IMG/VR virus record: IMGVR_UViG_3300038463_000594
Source: a virus
Reading direction: 5' to 3' (one strand)
DNA length: 33,772 bases
How positions within the stretch are numbered: position 1 is the stretch's first letter; each line of letters opens with the position of its first letter. The position numbers and the translations under genes are program-made. Shown here piece by piece: positions 1,453-33,772 of the stretch. The notes beneath the pieces were generated by a model. The model was not told the DNA's origin, did no database searches, and was given only the letters and a program-made list of their open reading frames with translations.

Positions 1453-2070
1453 ATGGCATATAATTCCGCAATACCACAATCAACTGATGCGACCAATGTT
1501 TCTCAACCGCAGATATTGGCTAATTTTACTTCAATAAATACGACACTGTTAGGTGTTGATAGTGCGGGAATGCTTTTTAATGATCAAGCGCCTGCATATC
1601 CAGGGTCGGTGGGTAATGATATAGAAATATTCAGTCGCGTAGCTCAGAATCCCGCTCAAATTGGCGAGAATGTTAACGTATTATGCCTTTCTCAAGCTAA
1701 TGAAATTATAGAATTTACCGGTGGCCTTACGACAATGCCCGGATGGACACGATTGCCAAGTGGTAACCTTATTAAATGGTTTACTGCTGCTGTTCCTTTA
1801 GCGGCCATAGGTGTAAGATCCCAAATCTATACCTATAACTGGACCGTTTCGGCCACTATTCCACGCTTTACTGCTGTCCCTAATATATGGCAAGTAACGA
1901 GCGTTACCGGTGCAGCTAACTTCGATGCCGGTGCGGTGTTTATATCCGACAGAAACCTTACGGCCCTTCAGGCATCTATTCAAGTCGATAGTTATAATCA
2001 ATTGTCACCGGGGTTTATTGGGGGCTGGCAAGCGTTTACGGTATTTTTCTTAGCGATCGGACAAGGATAA
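1453..2070 (+). CDS. Short tail-fibre / receptor-binding-type protein, paralogue 1 of 3
   Basis: 205 aa. GGAGGA SD 7 nt upstream. N-terminus MAYNSAIPQSTD, motif PGWTRLPSGNLIKW and C-terminal FLAIGQG resemble the distal knob domain common in phage tail fibres (from memory). Confidence 0.6.
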   Translation: MAYNSAIPQSTDATNVSQPQILANFTSINTTLLGVDSAGMLFNDQAPAYPGSVGNDIEIFSRVAQNPAQIGENVNVLCLSQANEIIEFTGGLTTMPGWTRLPSGNLIKWFTAAVPLAAIGVRSQIYTYNWTVSATIPRFTAVPNIWQVTSVTGAANFDAGAVFISDRNLTALQASIQVDSYNQLSPGFIGGWQAFTVFFLAIGQG

Positions 2071-2084
2071 TATATGGCATATAA
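2057..2084 (+). repeat. Junction repeat, copy 1 (stop-SD-start between paralogues 1 and 2)
   Basis: TCGGACAAGGATAATATATGGCATATAA. 27/28 identical to 2687-2714. Confidence 0.9.
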
Positions 2085-2700
2085 TTATAATATTCCTCAA
2101 TCAACCGATAAATTTAAGAATTCATATGCTCAATTACAGGGAAACTTCCAATCTATTAACACGGCGCTTCTTGGTGTGGATAATGGGGGCATTCTTTGTA
2201 CCAATCAAGCAACTGACCCTGCAACATCAGCCACGCAGATGGCCCTTTATAGTCGTATCGCCCAAAATACGGTACAGCCGGGAGCATTTGCTAATACCCT
2301 TTGTGTGAGAAAGAATACAAGTGGTAATGTATATGAGTTTACGGGAGGGGCTGCAAACAATCCTGGATGGACACGGTTGCCAAGTGGCATGCTTATTAAA
2401 TGGATGCCCGTAACTATCCCCGCAGAACTTGCTGATACATTTGCTACTTTTAATCAAACATGGCCTACCACGACAGGTGGGTATAATATTCCTGCTTTTA
2501 CTTCAGCACCCACCTATTTCAATCTTATGCCGGTAGCTACCACGGTTACTTCTCCAACGTATGCTAATCCCTATCTGGTGTCAGGATCTCCTACTACCAC
2601 AACGTATACCATTAAAGTTAATAGTTATAACTATGGCATTTTGTTTATAGAGGGATGGGAATCCTTTAATATAAACGTTATTGCTTTCGGACAAGGATAA
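2074..2700 (+). CDS. Short tail-fibre / receptor-binding-type protein, paralogue 2 of 3
   Basis: 208 aa. MAYNYNIPQSTD..., PGWTRLPSGMLIKW ... VIAFGQG. Alignable end to end with the neighbouring paralogues, with a divergent centre. Confidence 0.6.
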   Translation: MAYNYNIPQSTDKFKNSYAQLQGNFQSINTALLGVDNGGILCTNQATDPATSATQMALYSRIAQNTVQPGAFANTLCVRKNTSGNVYEFTGGAANNPGWTRLPSGMLIKWMPVTIPAELADTFATFNQTWPTTTGGYNIPAFTSAPTYFNLMPVATTVTSPTYANPYLVSGSPTTTTYTIKVNSYNYGILFIEGWESFNINVIAFGQG

Positions 2701-2714
2701 TCTATGGCATATAA
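2687..2714 (+). repeat. Junction repeat, copy 2 (between paralogues 2 and 3)
   Basis: TCGGACAAGGATAATCTATGGCATATAA. One mismatch to 2057-2084, 630 bp away. Confidence 0.9.
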
Positions 2715-3327
2715 CGCTAATATTCCACGACCCTTTGATTTCAGATCCGTATCTCAGGCTCAGATTCTTGGCAACTTTGAAGGCATAGGAGCTTCACTTT
2801 TAGGAGTAGATGTTGGTGGACTTGCCATGGGAACCCAGAGAGCTCCTGTTTTAACGGGAACTAATCAAATGGCATTCTATGCACGAAATGCTCAGAATCC
2901 TGCCATACCTAATGATCCTTTTCTTAATGTTGCTTGTGTTCAACGACTTTCCAATGGCGCCGTAACAGAATTCTCAATTTCAGGAGATGATGGCGCTAAT
3001 GATGGGTGGTTTAGGTATCCCAATGGCATATTAGTCAAGTATCAACTTATACAGATTCCGGGCAATAACACCACCTCATTAGGAAGATCAGTTACCTATA
3101 ATTGGCTGGTAAATGCAGGATTTCCGATGTATACCTCAGTGCCATTCCTTATTCAAGTTACCCCGGCACAATATGGCAACATGGCAACCAACTATGTAGG
3201 GGCAAGAGTGTTCTTAGATAGTACTAATCCTGCCACTACGACCGGATTTACTCTTTCAATACAAAGTTATCAAGGTGGCGGCTGGGCTGGATTTCAAGCG
3301 TTTGTTCTCGCTTACGGGTTAGGATAA
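2704..3327 (+). CDS. Short tail-fibre / receptor-binding-type protein, paralogue 3 of 3 (most diverged)
   Basis: 207 aa. MAYNANIPRPFD..., DGWFRYPNGILVKY ... VLAYGLG. Confidence 0.55.
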   Translation: MAYNANIPRPFDFRSVSQAQILGNFEGIGASLLGVDVGGLAMGTQRAPVLTGTNQMAFYARNAQNPAIPNDPFLNVACVQRLSNGAVTEFSISGDDGANDGWFRYPNGILVKYQLIQIPGNNTTSLGRSVTYNWLVNAGFPMYTSVPFLIQVTPAQYGNMATNYVGARVFLDSTNPATTTGFTLSIQSYQGGGWAGFQAFVLAYGLG

Positions 3328-10767: not shown

Positions 10768-10784
10768 TAATTTCTGGTTCCTTT

Positions 10785-10814
10785 GATCCCCGCGAGGTTG
10801 CACTTGTGGGGATC
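10785..10814 (+). terminator. Hairpin after the 211-aa fibre-like gene (terminator candidate)
   Basis: GATCCCC-16 nt-GGGGATC followed by ATATATCTTTTAT. Confidence 0.45.
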
Positions 10815-10862
10815 ATATATCTTTTATAGGCTTAGACAAAACTTAACTTTAAAGGAACCTTT

Positions 10863-11060: not shown

Positions 11061-11089
11061 TAATAACACTTTACTTTAAAGGAAGTGTA

Positions 11090-14565: not shown

Positions 14566-15555
14566 ATGGCTACAAATAATTCAGCCGATTACAGTCCAAC
14601 GCAGTATAATGTGCAAGTTGGCGGGGCGAACGGCGCTTTAGCAAATATAGCTCCATCAGCCACTTCAGGTGTTCCGATAATCTCTGGTGGATCCTCTGCC
14701 AATCCTAGTTTTGGTACCGCGGTAGTAGCGGGAGGTGGTACGGGTGTGGCAACAATGACAACTGCTTACGCACCCGTTTGTGCTGGTACGACAGCAACAG
14801 GAGCACTTCAGGTAGCATCAACAGGATTGTCTACTTCAGGATATGTTCTAACAAGCAATGGATCTTCAGCATTGCCTAGTTTTAAAGCAGCTTCCGGAGG
14901 AATAGCATCTGTAGCTATACAAGTTTTTACCTCTTCTGGAACTTATACTCCTACTTCTGGAATGCTTTATTGCATTATTGAATGCGTGGGTGGTGGCGGT
15001 GGCGGTGGTGGCAATGCGGGGACTGCCCCTAACACAACTTCTGGTGGTGGCGGTGGATCTGGAAGCTATTCTAGAAAAGTATCAAGTGCTGCCGCAATAG
15101 GCGCCTCTCAGACTGTTACCATTGGAGCTGCCGGGGCTGGCGGAGTTTCTGGTCAGAATAATGGTGGCAACGGAGGAGATACTTCTGTAGGAACGATATG
15201 TATAGGTAAAGGTGGCGGTGGTGGTGGTGGCGCAGCTGGTAATATCATTGGTGGAGCCCCTGGCGCAGGTGGTGTAGCGGGTACGGGAGATTTTACAAGT
15301 ACCGGAACTCCTGGTGGCGTTGGTCTATATATCAATCAGACTGCTACCACCGGAAGTGCAAATGGTGGATCATTTGGTGGGCCATCTTTTTTTGGTGGCG
15401 GAGCCATAGCTCTTATTTTCACTAATACTGGTAATGGAAACGCGGCTACCAATTATGGGGCTGGTGGTGGAGGTGGCTATGGTTGGAATGTTACTGCTAA
15501 TCAATCTGGTGGCGCCGGATCAGCAGGGGTTATAATTATAACTGAGTATATATAA
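14566..15555 (+). CDS. Glycine-rich-domain fibre/tail protein
   Basis: 329 aa. The N-terminus MATNNSADYSP resembles that of the preceding gene. The core FTSSGTYTPTSGMLYCIIECVGGGGGGGG, further poly-Gly blocks and GAGSAGVIIITEY at the end fit the glycine-rich domain seen in phage tail proteins. Confidence 0.65.
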   Translation: MATNNSADYSPTQYNVQVGGANGALANIAPSATSGVPIISGGSSANPSFGTAVVAGGGTGVATMTTAYAPVCAGTTATGALQVASTGLSTSGYVLTSNGSSALPSFKAASGGIASVAIQVFTSSGTYTPTSGMLYCIIECVGGGGGGGGNAGTAPNTTSGGGGGSGSYSRKVSSAAAIGASQTVTIGAAGAGGVSGQNNGGNGGDTSVGTICIGKGGGGGGGAAGNIIGGAPGAGGVAGTGDFTSTGTPGGVGLYINQTATTGSANGGSFGGPSFFGGGAIALIFTNTGNGNAATNYGAGGGGGYGWNVTANQSGGAGSAGVIIITEYI

Positions 15556-15570
15556 ATACTAAGGATTGCT

Positions 15571-15801
15571 ATGGAATTATCATCAATATATAAAGTGATA
15601 TTGCTCATAGTCTCTCTTATTATTGGCGTGAGTGCACATATTATATACTTGCGCCAATCAACATCGCCTCTGGTTAAAGAGATTGCTCAAGATGTTGAAG
15701 AAATCTCTGAAGAAGTAATCAAGGATGAATCGGGTATGGATATTCGCTCATTTACTGATATGGTATCTACTCCTCAATCACCACAAATGCATCAGATATA
15801 A
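15571..15801 (+). CDS. Small single-pass membrane protein with acidic tail (holin/antiholin or unknown)
   Basis: 76 aa. TM helix IYKVILLIVSLIIGVSAHIIYL. Last gene of the rightward late block. Confidence 0.6.
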   Translation: MELSSIYKVILLIVSLIIGVSAHIIYLRQSTSPLVKEIAQDVEEISEEVIKDESGMDIRSFTDMVSTPQSPQMHQI

Positions 15802-15807
15802 AGAAAA

Positions 15808-15833
15808 CCCCTCGTCTGAAACATGACGAGGGG
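15808..15833. terminator. Intrinsic terminator at the convergence point (best oriented for the minus-strand erf operon)
   Basis: CCCCTCGTC-8 nt-GACGAGGGG. On the minus strand it is followed by TTTTCTTTAT. On the plus strand it is flanked by A-runs. Confidence 0.75.
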
Positions 15834-15840
15834 AAAAATA

Positions 15841-15862
15841 TTCTCCCTTAAAACAAGGAGAA
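15841..15862 (-). terminator. Second, weaker minus-strand terminator in tandem
   Basis: Minus strand TTCTCC-10 nt-GGAGAA followed by TATTTTT. Confidence 0.45.
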
Positions 15863-15933
15863 CGGAGTTGTCCCAGAAGGGCCACCTGGAAAGGAAAAAA
15901 GGAAGAAAAACCAGGCGCCCAAATTTATTAAAC

Positions 15934-16413
15934 TTATCGTTGATAACTTGCATCATTATCTTCATTTTGCGGCTGAAGTCCTAATATTGTCAATGTTTCA
16001 TATCTTCGTGCATATGTTCTTCTTGATCCTATCTGCTGCATAAGTGTTAGTTTTTCCTTACTTTTTTCATATTCCTCAGGAATAATCGCAGGAACAGTAA
16101 ATTGAGACTCGAAGAATTGGCCGCTTATATGAGTGATTCTGGTGTGCAATACACCATCTTTGGATGAATATTGCCTGAATGCTAAGCCATATTTATTAAG
16201 AATAGGAGTAACCATCTCAAGGATATCTTCAAGAACTGCATATTTTCCTACAAATGACTTATGAGTCTTAAGAACCGGCCCGAATTCCATTTGGGATGCT
16301 ATAAAAGCAGGAATAATCTGGTCTTGTTCCTGAGATTGCAACGAAGATAATTCCATTCCTCTTCGTATCAAAGCATCTCGCTCTTTAATCAGCTTTTCTA
16401 GTAGGTTTTCCAT
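15934..16413 (-). CDS. erf: ERF-family single-strand annealing recombinase
   Basis: 159 aa. GKYAVLEDILEMVTPILNKYGL and IGSRRTYARRYETLTILGL match the P22 Erf pattern (KY.Y..DIL..V.PLL..GL ... SYARKY.L..L.G). Confidence 0.85.
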   Translation of the reverse strand: MENLLEKLIKERDALIRRGMELSSLQSQEQDQIIPAFIASQMEFGPVLKTHKSFVGKYAVLEDILEMVTPILNKYGLAFRQYSSKDGVLHTRITHISGQFFESQFTVPAIIPEEYEKSKEKLTLMQQIGSRRTYARRYETLTILGLQPQNEDNDASYQR

Positions 16414-16484
16414 TATTTACCTCTTACAGCATTCATTGTTTTTATCATGCAATGGGCTCGTATCATGTCTAAATTATTTTCCAT
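16413..16484 (-). CDS. 23-aa micro-ORF translationally coupled to erf (tentative)
   Basis: AGGATAATTT-ATG. MENNLDMIRAHCMIKTMNAVRGK. Its TAA shares an A with the erf ATG (ATAATG). Its initiation region is the 29-bp repeat copy. Confidence 0.35.
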   Translation of the reverse strand: MENNLDMIRAHCMIKTMNAVRGK

Positions 16485-16502
16485 AAATTATCCTATCGTT
16501 TG
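16474..16502. repeat. 29-bp perfect direct repeat, copy 1
   Basis: TTATTTTCCATAAATTATCCTATCGTTTG, identical to 16885-16913. Confidence 0.97.
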
Positions 16503-16555
16503 GAGGGGACCGCCATAAGCAGTGAAAGACGGCCCTCAGAGTAGTAGTGAAGTCT
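16502..16555 (-). repeat. Conserved intercistronic hairpin element, copy A
   Basis: GGAGGGGACCGCCATAAGCAGTGAAAGACGGCCCTCAGAGTAGTAGTGAAGTCT. Shares a 23-nt core and a 16-nt tail with 18082-18133. Stem 5+3 bp with a 2-nt bulge. Confidence 0.85.
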
Positions 16556-16895
16556 ATATCTCTATATTTTTAATATTTATTTCAATATCTAATAAATCTG
16601 CAATTGTGTTTATAAATTCTCTAAGAGCAATACTCTTCTTCTCTACAATTTCTTCTGAATCAGTATTATGTATAGAAAAAAATATTGATTGTTCTTCTAA
16701 GGTAAGAGAAAAAGTCACTGCATTAATGAGAGAACATAAATCTGGCATACAATTAATAACTTTTTTTCTATCTTCTTCATTGGATATGCTTGTATATACT
16801 TTAAACAGAAACTTTTCTAATTTTTCTTCTCCAGCTTTAAATAATTCTGTTCCTATCTCTTCTATTCTCATTATTTTTATTTCTTTATTTTCCAT
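16554..16895 (-). CDS. Acidic early orphan protein (cassette cargo)
   Basis: 113 aa, Glu/Asp/Ile-rich, very AT-rich coding sequence. SD AGGATAA. The first 11 nt lie inside repeat copy 2. Confidence 0.7.
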   Translation of the reverse strand: MENKEIKIMRIEEIGTELFKAGEEKLEKFLFKVYTSISNEEDRKKVINCMPDLCSLINAVTFSLTLEEQSIFFSIHNTDSEEIVEKKSIALREFINTIADLLDIEINIKNIEI

Positions 16896-16913
16896 AAATT
16901 ATCCTATCGTTTG
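16885..16913. repeat. 29-bp perfect direct repeat, copy 2
   Basis: Identical to 16474-16502. 411 bp between the copy starts. Confidence 0.97.
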
Positions 16914-17143
16914 CAGCAGTTTTCATCATTATCATGTAAGGGGAATCCATGCTGATAATATTCATCTTTATGTTCAATTATTCCCGACAGTCCGAAGCTC
17001 TGTCCATCTTCATAATTACTTACACACGTCCTACTGCAGAACTCTTCTTTCTCAAATGCTTTAAACTTAAACACTTCGTCTTTTAACTTCGAGAAGCATG
17101 AATAACATTTGATAGAGTTACGAGATTTAATAGTTAAATACAT
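16904..17143 (-). CDS. Small Zn-ribbon protein (C-x2-C ... FCS-x2-C type)
   Basis: 79 aa. KCYSCFSKL...EEFCSRTCVSNY. AAAGGAAAAAG SD. Confidence 0.65.
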   Translation of the reverse strand: MYLTIKSRNSIKCYSCFSKLKDEVFKFKAFEKEEFCSRTCVSNYEDGQSFGLSGIIEHKDEYYQHGFPLHDNDENCCKR

Positions 17144-17164
17144 CTTTTTCCTTTGTTTTAATTA

Positions 17165-17192
17165 TTGACTACATTAATATAACTGATATAAT
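17165..17192 (+). promoter_or_regulatory. Rightward early promoter 1 (drives HTH paralogue 1)
   Basis: TTGACT-16 nt-TATAAT. Confidence 0.6.
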
Positions 17193-17204
17193 TAATATTA
17201 TCAA
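17176..17204 (-). promoter_or_regulatory. Leftward early promoter 1 (drives the Zn-ribbon...erf operon), overlapping the rightward one
   Basis: Minus strand TTGATA-17 nt-TATATT. Its -10 lies in the spacer of the + promoter. Confidence 0.5.
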
Positions 17205-17242
17205 GATAAATGTGATAATTAACATAAGCATAGGGGTCATCG

Positions 17243-17458
17243 ATGGAATACTTTGAAGAAGAAGAAATAGAGGCGCATGAATTGCGTAAGAGATTGTGGA
17301 AACTGGTTAATAATTCTAAGTTAAGTCTCAATCAGCACAGTAAAGGCATGGGAGTTAACGGAGGTACTCTTACTAACTTTCTCAAGATGAGGATTGAGAA
17401 TCCTGCATATCATACACTGGTAAAGATAAAGAATTATTTAGAAGCTCAAAAAGGATAA
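17243..17458 (+). CDS. Small HTH (Cro/CI-like) regulator, paralogue 1
   Basis: 71 aa. LSLNQHSKGMGVNGGTLTNFLK...LVKIKNYLEAQKG. Aligns with 19075..19284. Confidence 0.6.
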   Translation: MEYFEEEEIEAHELRKRLWKLVNNSKLSLNQHSKGMGVNGGTLTNFLKMRIENPAYHTLVKIKNYLEAQKG

Positions 17459-17460
17459 TG

Positions 17461-17610
17461 ATGTTTGATAGAGAAGATATCACCTATGCAATGAAACTTA
17501 TTGTAGTGAGTATATTTTTGCTGTTCTTCTCTATCACTACGTTTGTTGTCGTGGGATCATTTTTTCTGTATATACTTTTTTACTTACTCTTGTACGTCGT
17601 TATGCGCTAG
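17461..17610 (+). CDS. 49-aa double-TM micro-protein coupled to HTH paralogue 1 (tentative)
   Basis: MFDREDITYAMKLIVVSIFLLFFSITTFVVVGSFFLYILFYLLLYVVMR. The AAAGGA encoding the QKG end of the HTH gene serves as its SD. An alternative ATG is at 17458. Confidence 0.45.
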   Translation: MFDREDITYAMKLIVVSIFLLFFSITTFVVVGSFFLYILFYLLLYVVMR

Positions 17611-17763
17611 GGGTGCTTTAGTGCCCATTGGCTTGCGACGAATAACACGTTTTTTGATGATTGGTGGTATGGCGGGAGAAGATTGGCTTACCTCATCCCC
17701 TTTTAGGCGTAATATAATTATTCCTGAAACTATAAGTACCAATATTAGGGTGCTGTATATCAT
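17584..17763 (-). CDS. 59-aa membrane-anchored basic protein, below the ORF-track cut-off (tentative)
   Basis: GAGGAATACG-ATG. MIYSTLILVLIVSGIIILRLKGDEVSQSSPAIPPIIKKRVIRRKPMGTKAPLAHNDVQE. Last gene of leftward operon 2. Overlaps the convergent micro-ORF by 27 nt. Confidence 0.45.
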   Translation of the reverse strand: MIYSTLILVLIVSGIIILRLKGDEVSQSSPAIPPIIKKRVIRRKPMGTKAPLAHNDVQE

Positions 17764-17790
17764 CGTATTCCTCGAGCATAACTTATCTTT

Positions 17791-18069
17791 TTATTCATAC
17801 TTATTTACTGGTTTTTGTTCAACATCGTATATTATTGTTACTTTTTTGGTCTTATCTTTTGGGCGTATCGATACTTCTATTTTTTCAAAGAAAAAATACT
17901 GAGAAGGATGTATAATTAATGTTTCATCTTCCTTAACAGATGCGACTAATGTGCCATTTATGGTTATGAATACAGTTTCATTTGAATTATTTAATATACC
18001 CAACATTTCATTATCATTTAGTCTTTCAACAATTAACTTTTGTTGTAACCCTATTTCTATATTATTCAT
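17791..18069 (-). CDS. Early orphan protein
   Basis: 92 aa. Follows hairpin copy B. Confidence 0.65.
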   Translation of the reverse strand: MNNIEIGLQQKLIVERLNDNEMLGILNNSNETVFITINGTLVASVKEDETLIIHPSQYFFFEKIEVSIRPKDKTKKVTIIYDVEQKPVNKYE

Positions 18070-18081
18070 ATATCTTTCTTA

Positions 18082-18133
18082 GGCGGGGACCGCCATAAGC
18101 AGTGAAACGGTCCCCGCAGTAGTAATGAAGTCT
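18082..18133 (-). repeat. Conserved intercistronic hairpin element, copy B
   Basis: GGCGGGGACCGCCATAAGCAGTGAAACGGTCCCCGCAGTAGTAATGAAGTCT. Perfect 10-bp stem GCGGGGACCG/CGGTCCCCGC and 15-nt loop. Confidence 0.85.
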
Positions 18134-18321
18134 CAATTGTTAAGGGGCATCAATGCCTTGTCGATGATCGTATAATATTTTGTAATAGTTTCAATATCTC
18201 TGATGTAATTATCCAATCTGCTCTTGTCGCTATTGAGTTTCCTCTGGCGCTCTTCAATCAACTTAGTTTCTCTTTCAATGAGCGCCTTAAGATCATCAAT
18301 CATCTTCTGAATATCTATCAC
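18133..18321 (-). CDS. Small coiled-coil early protein
   Basis: 62 aa from GTG 18321 (AAGGA SD), or 56 aa from ATG 18303. Heptad-rich (DDLKALIERETKLIEERQRKL). Confidence 0.6.
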   Translation of the reverse strand: MIDIQKMIDDLKALIERETKLIEERQRKLNSDKSRLDNYIRDIETITKYYTIIDKALMPLNN

Positions 18322-18703
18322 TTTTTTCCTTATGATATAAGTTTATAGAGTTATCCCAGTTTTTTATTGCGTTGGATAAGACTAAATCTTCCTTTTTCAT
18401 CTTGGTTTTTCTTATGGGCTCTCTTATTTCTTTCTTTTTATTCTCCCACACTCTCCATTGATACAGCTCTCTCATCATCTTCTCCATACGAGGGAATGTT
18501 CGTATGATCCATTGGTCCCATGGACGAACCGCATGGGCGATGCGAGCCATTTTACTGTACATATCAGTTAAGTTATCCTTATCTCCATAGGGACTTTGCA
18601 TCAAGATATTGAATTTATCCGCAAGATCCATTAGTTCATTAACTTTAGCATTGAGAAACTCTTCTGTTTCAATGATTGACTTGTTAATTAGTTTCATAAC
18701 CAC
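18296..18703 (-). CDS. Early orphan protein
   Basis: 135 aa, helical and charged. I recognise no motif. Confidence 0.7.
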   Translation of the reverse strand: MVMKLINKSIIETEEFLNAKVNELMDLADKFNILMQSPYGDKDNLTDMYSKMARIAHAVRPWDQWIIRTFPRMEKMMRELYQWRVWENKKKEIREPIRKTKMKKEDLVLSNAIKNWDNSINLYHKEKSDRYSEDD

Positions 18704-18713
18704 TCTCTTTTAG

Positions 18714-18986
18714 TTATTTATTACATGGACAGCTAGCGCAGTGAGAAATAGCATTAACGGGAAATTTAGGCAACAATGCGAAATATGTTGGTTCAGGTAT
18801 TTCATGCTCATCATCATGAGCGTAAATAGATAGTTGCCATTTTGGTTTATTGAGGCGCTCATCTTCTGACCATAGTGCTACGGATACACTCCCTCTATGA
18901 TAAATAAGTACTTCTATCCCTTCTTCTGGATAGCAATCGCCTATTTTAATCCATGATACTGAACTTACTTTTTCTGTATTAACCAT
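18714..18986 (-). CDS. DUF551-like early protein
   Basis: 90 aa from ATG 18986 (AAAGGA SD 8 nt upstream). SWIKIGDCYPEEGIEVLIY...VALW...LLPKFP fits the DUF551 pattern. The ORF-track TTG at 19022 would sit at the predicted transcription start. Confidence 0.55.
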   Translation of the reverse strand: MVNTEKVSSVSWIKIGDCYPEEGIEVLIYHRGSVSVALWSEDERLNKPKWQLSIYAHDDEHEIPEPTYFALLPKFPVNAISHCASCPCNK

Positions 18987-19008
18987 TTTATTGTCCTTTA
19001 TGTGTTTA

Positions 19009-19037
19009 TTGACTTTACTCAATTACTAGATTATCAT
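19009..19037 (+). promoter_or_regulatory. Rightward early promoter 2 (drives HTH paralogue 2)
   Basis: TTGACT-17 nt-TATCAT. Confidence 0.55.
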
Positions 19038-19055
19038 ATTAATATAATAAGTCAA
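19028..19055 (-). promoter_or_regulatory. Leftward early promoter 2, overlapping the rightward one
   Basis: Minus strand TTGACT-16 nt-(TGA)TAATCT, with an extended -10 TG. Confidence 0.45.
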
Positions 19056-19074
19056 ACAATATATAGGATAATTA

Positions 19075-19284
19075 ATGAATCGATACGACTTTATCACCAA
19101 CCAGAATCGTGAAGCTATTGTTAAAGTTCTTAAAACGGTAGATATAGCGAGCCTCTCAAAAGAGATAGGCATAAACCCTATAACACTCAAGTCGTTCGCT
19201 TCAGGAATGTGGACGCCAGAGATGAAGACTCTTGCAAAGATAGAAAACTATCTTAAGAAACAAAAAGGATCTTATGGTGAATGA
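19075..19284 (+). CDS. Small HTH (Cro/CI-like) regulator, paralogue 2
   Basis: 69 aa. ASLSKEIGINPITLKSFASG...LAKIENYLKKQKGSYGE. Confidence 0.6.
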   Translation: MNRYDFITNQNREAIVKVLKTVDIASLSKEIGINPITLKSFASGMWTPEMKTLAKIENYLKKQKGSYGE

Positions 19285-19641: not shown

Positions 19642-19645
19642 AAAA

Positions 19646-19662
19646 GGGAGCTTTTCGCTCCC
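19646..19662. terminator. Short GC hairpin after the HTH2 mini-operon
   Basis: GGGAGC-TTTTC-GCTCCC, with AAAAA upstream. The U-tract exists only for a minus-strand transcript. Confidence 0.4.
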
Positions 19663-19735
19663 CCTAACGCGCTCTTGCTTAAGTCGGAAACTTATATTAG
19701 CATAGAGCAATTGATAATAACGTTTAGAAAACAAT

Positions 19736-19762
19736 AAAGAGAACTTTGAACGAGTTCTCTTT
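19736..19762. terminator. Perfect 10-bp hairpin just upstream of the rep-like gene (terminator/attenuator candidate)
   Basis: AAAGAGAACT-TTGAACG-AGTTCTCTTT. T-rich on the 3' side in both orientations. Confidence 0.45.
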
Positions 19763-19785
19763 ATATCCAAGCAACAAGGATCATC

Positions 19786-27703: not shown

Positions 27704-27714
27704 AAACATTATTG

Positions 27715-27744
27715 GGGGAACGGACCACAGCATGAAAGTTCCCC
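27715..27744 (+). other. Hairpin, possible diverged third copy of the 16502/18082 element
   Basis: GGGGAACGGACCACAGCATGAAAGTTCCCC. 7-bp stem. The loop ...CCACAGCATGAAA compares with CCATAAGCAGTGAAA. Confidence 0.35.
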
Positions 27745-27763
27745 TGATAAATAAAGGTAAATC

Positions 27764-30837: not shown

Positions 30838-30855
30838 TATTGTATATCTAATCTT

Positions 30856-30954
30856 AGCGCATCGGAGAAGTCGCTACCTCCATCTATTCCTATCGAGCGT
30901 ATCGAAGAAGTCGCTCCCTTCAATAAAAGGCGTATTTTTAAGAGTCGCCACCTT
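30856..30954. repeat. Three spaced copies of a GTCGC[TC][AC]CCT[CT] motif upstream of the capsid gene
   Basis: Cores at 30870-30880, 30910-30920 and 30944-30954. The first two sit in ~27-nt imperfect direct repeats, AGCGCATCGGAGAAGTCGCTACCTCCA and AGCGTATCGAAGAAGTCGCTCCCTTCA. Confidence 0.7.
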
Positions 30955-30992
30955 AAGTAAAAGTATTCAATCATTAATACTAAGGATAACTT

Positions 30993-33574: not shown

Positions 33575-33772
33575 ATGCCAGCGAATAATGGTGCGGTTGC
33601 AACCCCTTTATATCAGCCCGCAATGCGGGTAATTACGAACATAACGAATGCTACAGTTCCCACGGTTACTACTTCATTCGCTCATAATTACACAAGCACT
33701 GATATCATCCGTATCGTTATTCCTAGTGGCTTTGGTATGTCGCAAATAAATGGGCTTGTATCGCCGATTGTG
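33575..33772 (+). CDS. 5' part of the junction-spanning 123-aa gene (continues at base 1..301)
   Basis: ATG 33575 lies 2 nt after the previous TAA. It reads through the window end in phase with 1..301. Confidence 0.8.
   Translation, partial: MPANNGAVATPLYQPAMRVITNITNATVPTVTTSFAHNYTSTDIIRIVIPSGFGMSQINGLVSPIV
33646..33772. repeat. Terminal direct repeat, copy 2
   Basis: Identical to 1-127. Confidence 0.97.

Follow-up and report, generated by a model that had tools for sequence, protein, structure and literature searches.

A two-copy intercistronic stem-loop in the plastic early region of a small peat-bog phage

Intercistronic hairpins and the phage genome

Intercistronic hairpins that stabilize mRNA include the E. 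coli REP sequences and those of the T4 and T7 early mRNAs, in which tetraloops or short loops are typical. An intrinsic terminator consists of a GC-rich stem with a loop of about 3–8 nt, followed within 0–2 nt by a U-rich tract. A nut site combines a boxA (CGCTCTTA-like) with a short hairpin whose 5-nt loop binds the arginine-rich N protein, and an RNase III site is formed by roughly 20 bp (about two helical turns) of double-stranded RNA, in many cases interrupted by an internal loop. REP- and MITE-like elements are present in multiple dispersed copies, in either orientation, in a host or phage genome.

The closest described system to the repeat reported here is the promoter-early stem-loop (PeSL) of T4-type phages (Arbiol et al., 2010, PMC2839356; Comeau et al., 2014, PMC4122927). 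PeSL stem-loops, often polyG/polyC, lie between the stop codon and the Shine-Dalgarno (SD) sequence of orphan genes in hyperplastic regions (PMC2839356). They mediate gene shuffling, and their definition includes a sigma-70-like early promoter (-35/-10) within the motif (PMC2839356). One stem-loop of this kind was tested and lowered reporter expression about as much as a strong terminator (PMC2839356).

The window, that is, the whole 33,772-nt stretch of DNA that was analyzed (IMG/VR record IMGVR_UViG_3300038463_000594), is a complete circular phage genome of 33,645 unique bases and 41% GC; positions 1–127 and 33646–33772 are identical, and this 127-nt terminal overlap indicates a circularly closed assembly. 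The phage comes from a peat bog and is described as small and podovirus-like. It encodes a P22-type portal, a large terminase, tail-fibre proteins, RusA, an endolysin-like protein, and an ERF annealing protein; no tRNA genes were found in the window. Megablast and blastn searches of GenBank phages returned no close relative of the window, and the best portal matches, to phages of Proteobacteria, did not exceed 25% identity. Contigs 99.7–100% identical to the window were recovered from more than 12 sequencing runs or assemblies (Logan, ENA, JGI). Elsewhere in the genome, two 27-nt direct repeats, AGCG(C/T)ATCG(G/A)AGAAGTCGCT.CCT.CA, stand 40 nt apart at 30856–30922 in a divergent gap (30838–30992), and beyond them comes a third copy, which is partial (AGAGTCGCCACCTT); the repeats resemble operator or iteron sites.

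The early region contains two leftward operons, the first running from 18986 to 17584 and the second from 17143 to 15934. The last gene of the second operon was assigned to the ERF family of single-strand annealing proteins (15934–16413, minus strand). Each operon is opposed by a rightward small-protein gene (17243–17458 and 19075–19284) with weak similarity to Cro/C1-type helix-turn-helix (HTH) proteins, and sigma-70-like promoter matches are present in both divergent gaps. The occurrence of two such HTH-like small genes suggests, as far as sequence can tell, that a divergent-promoter control module was duplicated. The two genes are apparently related, with both proteins ending in ...NYLxxQKG, and each stands first in a rightward unit.

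The first operon contains copy B of the element discussed below, between ORF62 (18133–18321, minus strand) and ORF92 (17791–18069, minus strand), and the second contains copy A, after ORF113 (16554–16895, minus strand). The ORF62 gene call is present in every strain contig listed, and no family assignment was found for its product. ORF92 (26% GC) and ORF113 (24% GC) are AT-rich in comparison to the genome as a whole (41% GC), and neither had a homologue among 5.8 billion proteins.

The repeat and its folds

Copy A (16502–16555, 54 nt) and copy B (18082–18133, 52 nt) are direct repeats in the same orientation on the minus strand, 1,580 bp apart. Read along that strand, copy B consists of a tail (18133–18118, AGACTTCATTACTACT), a 5' arm (18117–18108, GCGGGGACCG), a loop (18107–18093, TTTCACTGCTTATGG), and a 3' arm (18092–18083, CGGTCCCCGC). 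An earlier note on this DNA had described a 23-nt core and a 16-nt tail common to both copies, each copy starting at the stop codon of an orphan ORF and ending just before the signals of the next gene, and all of this was confirmed. The core, TTTCACTGCTTATGGCGGTCCCC on the minus strand, occurs exactly twice (16505–16527 and 18085–18107), with no third match in the genome even at 3 mismatches and none in any of 100 genome shuffles, and the shared tail is AGACTTCAYTACTACT. The upstream stop codons overlap the first two bases of copy A (TAG of ORF113, 16554–16556) and the first base of copy B (TGA of ORF62, 18133–18135), and the distance from the end of the element to the next ATG is 18 nt and 13 nt, respectively.

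In the minus-strand alignment, B reads TTGAGACTTCATTACTACTGCGGGGACCG--TTTCACTGCTTATGGCGGTCCCCGCCTAAGAA and A reads TATAGACTTCACTACTACTCTGAGGGCCGTCTTTCACTGCTTATGGCGGTCCCCTCCAAACGA. The loop is identical in the two copies, the 3' arm is mostly the same, and the tail has a single mismatch, while the 5' arm has diverged (CTGAGGGCCGTC). Six of the 8 differences fall in the 5' arm, as 4 substitutions and a 2-nt insertion, so that mismatches occupy 6/12 alignment columns in this arm versus 2/41 elsewhere (Fisher p = 0.0009). Copy B has a GC content of 58% and is flanked by genes of 26% and 36% GC. The 63-nt gap that holds B and the ~70–140-nt gap that holds A are retained in every contig spanning them.

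The perfect 10-bp stem that had been reported for copy B was found as a palindrome with a 15-nt spacer (18083–18117). As RNA, the stem of copy B extends to 12 pairs, two of them U·G (free energy -23.3 kcal/mol, range -23 to -25 kcal/mol; z -3.6 to -3.8), and no shuffle folded equally well. The best fold of copy A is an interrupted hairpin of 5+5 pairs with a 2-nt bulge and a free energy of -14.1 kcal/mol, a net loss in stability of ~9 kcal/mol relative to B; in context its z-score is -1.2, and 26 of 200 shuffles fold equally well. The pairing proposed for A in the earlier note scores -8.8 kcal/mol. In both copies the transcribed strand folds slightly better than its complement owing to U·G pairs (12 versus 10 pairs in B; z -1.2 versus -0.3 in A), and the loop of the element measures 11–15 nt.

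Compared with B, copy A shows a single compensatory change (C:G to A:U) and lacks 2 nt of the arm, and an inserted UC pairs with GG of the former loop, giving one to two new pairs and partly restoring the fold. The compensatory change and the unchanged loop that had been noted for A are real, but the stem that they belong to is interrupted and folds at z -1.2. The compensatory change and the pairing of the UC insertion hint that foldability was kept, although two sequences are not evidence of covariation and permit no statistic for it or for selection. The wider claim of an invariant loop on a covarying stem was overstated: the covarying stem came down to a single double change and a 2-nt bulge, with the differences clustered in one arm. 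Because of this clustering, a single template-switch or recombination event is also sufficient to explain the changes. The apparent invariant-loop/covarying-stem signature came from a local duplication of two copies and not from a conserved RNA family; the earlier interpretation, partly supported overall, was over-read.

No U-tract follows the stem in either copy (B continues CUAAGAAAGAUAU and A continues CAAACGAUAGG), and neither copy appears in a terminator scan that does detect the hairpin at 15808–15833, in agreement with the earlier statement that the element is not a standard intrinsic terminator. The hairpin at 15808–15833 is a canonical bidirectional terminator with a T-tract, part of a cluster of three hairpins (15802–15933) between the converging operons; the existence of this real terminator places A and B in a different hairpin class. 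The same cluster also holds a large-loop GC hairpin (GGGCGCCTGG...CCAGGTGGCCC), is kept with changes in a relative (L053:1380–1510), and gives a weak, chance-like Rfam match to anti-hemB (29.7 bits, under the gathering score). An RNase III or processing site, which had been listed among the candidates, is not consistent with the folds: with no more than 12 contiguous pairs in B and 5+5 in A, the stem falls short of a classical RNase III site.

Several other readings of the element were rejected. Translational bypass or readthrough across it does not fit, since the 2-nt indel puts the frames of A and B out of register, A is without matching take-off and landing codons, and both downstream genes have their own SD and ATG. 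A reading as coding sequence or as an antisense ORF (16522–17064) was inconsistent between the copies, and a tRNA-like origin was likewise rejected.

Strong hairpins were found in other same-strand gaps as well. Only 9 such gaps of at least 25 nt exist in the genome, and five of them fold at z <= -3 (10768–10862, 11061–11089, 18070–18132, 19642–19785, and 27704–27763); the gap with copy A, at z -0.4, misses this level by itself. The hairpin at 27715–27744, which had been called a looser look-alike of A and B, is genuine but separate, with a 7-bp stem, a 16-nt loop, and a z-score of -3.3 to -3.9. Its resemblance to the element is at background level (alignment score to B of 19, genome background 18–22), it went unreported by a covariance model built from A and B, and the homologous junction in relatives holds unrelated strong hairpins (L003, L014, L030) or, in the others, no hairpin or no spacer; it was therefore rejected as a third copy. 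Because five of the nine gaps fold strongly and the relatives carry unrelated hairpins at the 27704 junction, punctuation of operons by hairpins looks like a general habit of this phage group. The gap at 19642–19785 contains two strong hairpins upstream of a putative replication-initiator gene, GGGAGCUUUUCGCUCCC and a 13-bp AAAGAGAACU.../...AGUUCUCUUU stem (z -5.3), which could be a regulatory or origin-related feature.

Distribution of the element and gene turnover around it

The element is restricted to one near-clonal phage lineage. Rfam 15 gave no match at the gathering threshold over the whole window, and none on A or B at E-values up to 10 (scan of 15780–19100). In GenBank phages, megablast and blastn searches with the region, a 7.6-kb block, and the 61-nt element returned nothing better than E = 5. 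Scans of viral, metagenomic, and cellular genome collections used exact 18-mers; they yielded one chance match in a Gly-rich gene in IMG/VR, 38 matches in JGI metagenomes, which apart from this phage itself were all due to chance (mostly coding, many in one Haemophilus gene), and 39 matches in GTDB (185,579 species genomes), all due to chance. The covariance model from the two copies was run on 414 kb of sequence, comprising the window and 34 loci (33 of them in portal relatives). It matched only A and B, and its next match (L009, E 0.72) corresponds to an ordinary terminator that follows a capsid-like gene. With no further copies and no covariation in homologues, the outcome that the earlier note had named as its refutation, the reading of A and B as a conserved structured element fails.

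A separate observation concerns the contig IMGVR_UViG_3300002930_001129 (L028; portal 57% identical), in which a capsid-like gene is apparently split into at least 4 exons (15500–18200). The inserts, of ~350–650 nt, are repeated, share conserved blocks of 89–103 nt, and contain an internal 7-bp/GAAA hairpin with compensatory changes between copies. Sub-threshold matches to the Rfam family Intron_gpI were obtained at 17237–17395 (30 bits, E 4e-5) and, more weakly, at 17720–18058, and the inserts may represent multiple group I introns within a single phage gene.

Contigs encoding the exact proteins of this phage were all from strains 99.7–100% identical to it. The elements are the same in every strain contig, without a single SNP, but overall divergence among these contigs is 0–0.3%, which makes them uninformative on conservation of the element. 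No relatives of the replication protein or of ERF were found in IMG/VR; two diverged relatives of ERF were found elsewhere (L053 and the P0005 contig). L053, with an ERF 88% identical, is the only diverged relative with DNA around ERF; there, a homologue of ORF79 is followed by a different gene, ORF116 (116 aa), which overlaps ERF, with no hairpin at this place. The absence of the module from L053 indicates that it is not needed for the operon.

The same searches bear on the possibility that the element is an RNA anti-CRISPR, a solitary repeat unit that mimics a host CRISPR repeat of a type I-F-like form (GTTCAC...CTAAGAAA). This idea drew on a by-eye alignment between B and type I-F repeats and on the intergenic position of the element among early genes. 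However, I-F, I-E, I-C, and V-A repeats score 9 against B, under a genome background of 10–13, no CRISPR-DR family of Rfam matched A or B at E-values up to 10, and the 18-mer occurs in no array among the 185,579 species genomes. In addition, the CTAAGAAA stretch is absent from copy A, and the dominant fold is without a Cas6f-type hairpin. SRUfinder requires both identity and coverage of 90% or more relative to a CRISPR repeat (PMC10651486), levels that the element does not reach with the repeats compared. The mimic was rejected on its sub-background score and the lack of a CRISPR-DR match, and an anti-CRISPR role is barely credible.

The early region is a hot spot of gene gain, loss, and swapping. 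A 32-nt junction repeat (J) brackets ORF113 and copy A (411 bp), with 31 of 32 nt identical between its copies: the upstream one (16885–16916, minus strand) covers the end of ORF79, the ribosome-binding site (RBS), and the start of ORF113, and the downstream one (16474–16505, minus strand, CTCCAAACGATAGGATAATTTATGGAAAATAA) abuts and overlaps the 3' arm of copy A. The G-to-T change in that arm falls inside the J repeat. Directly before the ERF start, at 16414–16484 (minus strand), a remnant joins the first 28 nt of a 155-aa gene to a 43-nt ORF79-like 3'-end remnant (...PLHDKNNECCKR, stop). In the strains L048 (2173–2640) and L052 (468–934) the 155-aa gene, which is without homologues, is intact and lies directly after A, before ERF. 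A gene-junction motif, (C/A)GATAGGATAA..ATGGAAAA, was observed at several early gene boundaries (16474–16505, 16885–16916, L053:170–195, and L053:985–1000), and a related RBS/start context, AGGATAATNTATGGC, at 1443, 2064, and 2694; these recurring junction motifs are candidates for the boundaries at which cassettes are exchanged. The stretch 1453–3327 consists of three paralogous genes in tandem, each of ~205 aa (1453–2070, 2074–2700, and 2704–3327), and the sequences at their junctions are conserved.

It had been suggested that the hairpin might be the recombination end of mobile cassettes. Of the three functions suggested there, this is the one for which circumstantial support was obtained, from the J repeat, the strain polymorphism, the AT-rich orphan genes, and the remnant, but the mappable crossover points fall within the J repeat and gene interiors, not demonstrably in the hairpin. 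The phage would be capable of short-homology recombination, given that it encodes ERF and RusA. In a more specific form of the idea, A and B would act at the level of DNA as recombination sites or as a small mobile palindrome, for example through a Campbell-type insertion of a mini-circle that the two copies now delimit as a 1,580-bp block. The direct repeats with their exact 23-nt core, the two most AT-rich orphan genes just inside the block, the presence of ERF and RusA, and the precedent of PeSL mini-circles (PMC2839356) are consistent with such an origin. However, the linkage of ORF79 to ERF within the block is ancestral, being common to L053 and the P0005 contig, so the stretch from B to A is not a simple insert. 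Every contig examined has the block, none has a junction at the hairpin, and the ORFs that were scanned included no integrase or transposase. With two copies in one orientation and neither terminal inverted repeats nor target duplications, a DNA-level element is improbable.

Proposed function

The element is best classed as an ordinary intercistronic stem-loop that was duplicated within a plastic early region. In the explanation preferred here, which is tentative and falls somewhat short of being probable, A and B are an intercistronic mRNA stem-loop (a stabilizer or attenuator) with a second role as portable homology, and its duplication came about through recombination. We infer both the function in RNA and the route of duplication, as follows. 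The two copies would represent one 52–54-nt intergenic module, each inside a leftward early operon of sigma-70 type. In the RNA, the single-stranded tail of 15–16 nt would place the stem just past the region covered by a ribosome that stops at the upstream stop codon, and a hairpin without a U-tract would then most likely impede 3'-to-5' mRNA decay, attenuate transcription weakly, or do both, splitting each early operon into proximal and distal expression units. In the DNA, the identical 23-nt core may provide portable homology where small genes swap at conserved boundaries, and such gene shuffling would have produced the second copy of the module. The invariant loop would then reflect shared and fairly recent ancestry, not recognition of the loop, and the cluster of changes in one arm would be the trace of one event, either template switching at a quasipalindrome, which made B perfect, or a junction left in A by recombination. 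Against a stabilizer or attenuator, a structural hairpin should drift in its loop and keep its arms paired, and the reverse is seen. A 15-nt loop is also unusually large for a stabilizer or terminator hairpin.

The main alternative to this explanation is that the element is a functionless relic, one hairpin or quasipalindrome copied by segmental duplication or illegitimate recombination, with neither copy active. The presence of just two copies in one near-clonal phage, their absence from L053, the partial decay of copy A (z -1.2), and the many duplication and deletion scars of the region all fit such an origin, as does the one-arm clustering, which is consistent with a single mutational event. 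Yet a very compact genome still keeps the gaps of 63 nt and ~70–140 nt in all spanning contigs, and copy B is perfect, very stable, and far richer in GC (58%) than the genes on either side (26% and 36%). The partial restoration of the fold by the 2-nt insertion in A, and the presence of hairpins in other same-strand gaps both here and in relatives, also speak against a relic, which is possible but doubtful.

The pattern of change has a further potential explanation in a sequence-specific RNA operator, whereby a phage or host protein, either a translational repressor or an antitermination factor of the nut/put type, would read the loop and tail and control the distal genes of both operons. One arm has drifted, whereas little or no difference between the copies is seen in the tail, the loop, and the 3' arm, and the end of the hairpin is directly beside the downstream ribosome-binding site. 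There is also one copy per leftward early operon, ~640–960 nt from promoter-like sites, a layout like that of nutL/nutR or putL/putR. Antitermination had been among the functions suggested earlier for the element, but the parts that it calls for were not found. Inspection of the element tail (AGACUUCAYUACUACU) revealed no match to boxA, the loop is not like the 5-nt GNRA-like loop of boxB, and no N- or Q-like protein or RNA-binding family was found among the early proteins. Moreover, no terminator stands between the elements and the operon ends, the only canonical one coming after ERF; the homologous operon of L053 is without the element, and Rfam gave no match even at E-values up to 10. An operator of this kind is quite unlikely.

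Less likely again is a module that combines these roles, a PeSL-like boundary element without a promoter; a phage factor would read its invariant loop and tail, and the element would at the same time be a crossover site for cassettes of orphan genes. If true, such a boundary module would be a combined regulatory and recombination signal outside the T4 group.

Comparison with known systems

Of the systems described at the outset, the intrinsic terminator resembles A and B in having a GC-rich stem after a gene end, but differs in its U-tract, which A and B do not have, and in its small loop, compared with 11–15 nt here. REP- and MITE-like elements differ from the two copies in one orientation seen here, for which the scans returned just chance coding matches and this phage. 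The lambda/P22 nut and HK022 put sites are similar in their layout, with two similar copies, one per early operon, each a single-stranded stretch followed by a hairpin. In contrast to these sites, both copies of the element are in leftward operons, the stem of 10–12 bp and the loop of 11–15 nt are not boxB-like, no N-like protein and no downstream terminators to override accompany them, and the closest relative, L053, is without the element. The mRNA-stabilizing hairpins come nearer, as A and B are likewise GC-rich stem-loops that lack a U-tract and follow a stop codon within a polycistronic operon, where they could shield the upstream mRNA and make expression differ between the genes. They differ from the stabilizing hairpins in their loop of 11–15 nt and in being two copies in one orientation, with no family found in host genomes.

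The differences from PeSLs are several. No sigma-70 site scoring at least 9/12 lies inside A or B, and a single 9/12 site is present just upstream of B only (18164–18136). There are 2 copies here in comparison to ~50 in T4-type phages, and the phage that carries them is of a 33.6-kb P22-portal/ERF/RusA kind, not a T4-like myovirus. Indels adjoin copy A (the J repeat, the 155-aa gene, and ORF116 in L053), with no breakpoint seen inside the hairpin. The likeness nonetheless extends to a repeated intergenic motif between the stop codon of an orphan gene and the next SD, a stem built of a G-run and a C-run, a hyperplastic early region, and a proposed double role as attenuator and recombination homology. 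By analogy, A and B may work like the stem-loop half of a PeSL, without being members of the PeSL family. The check is mainly of negative value and opens no new question. If the preferred explanation is right, the element would carry the PeSL idea beyond T4-type phages, to a small podovirus-like phage of a peat bog, and add one more example of hairpins that punctuate early operons of phages and move along with shuffled genes of unknown function.
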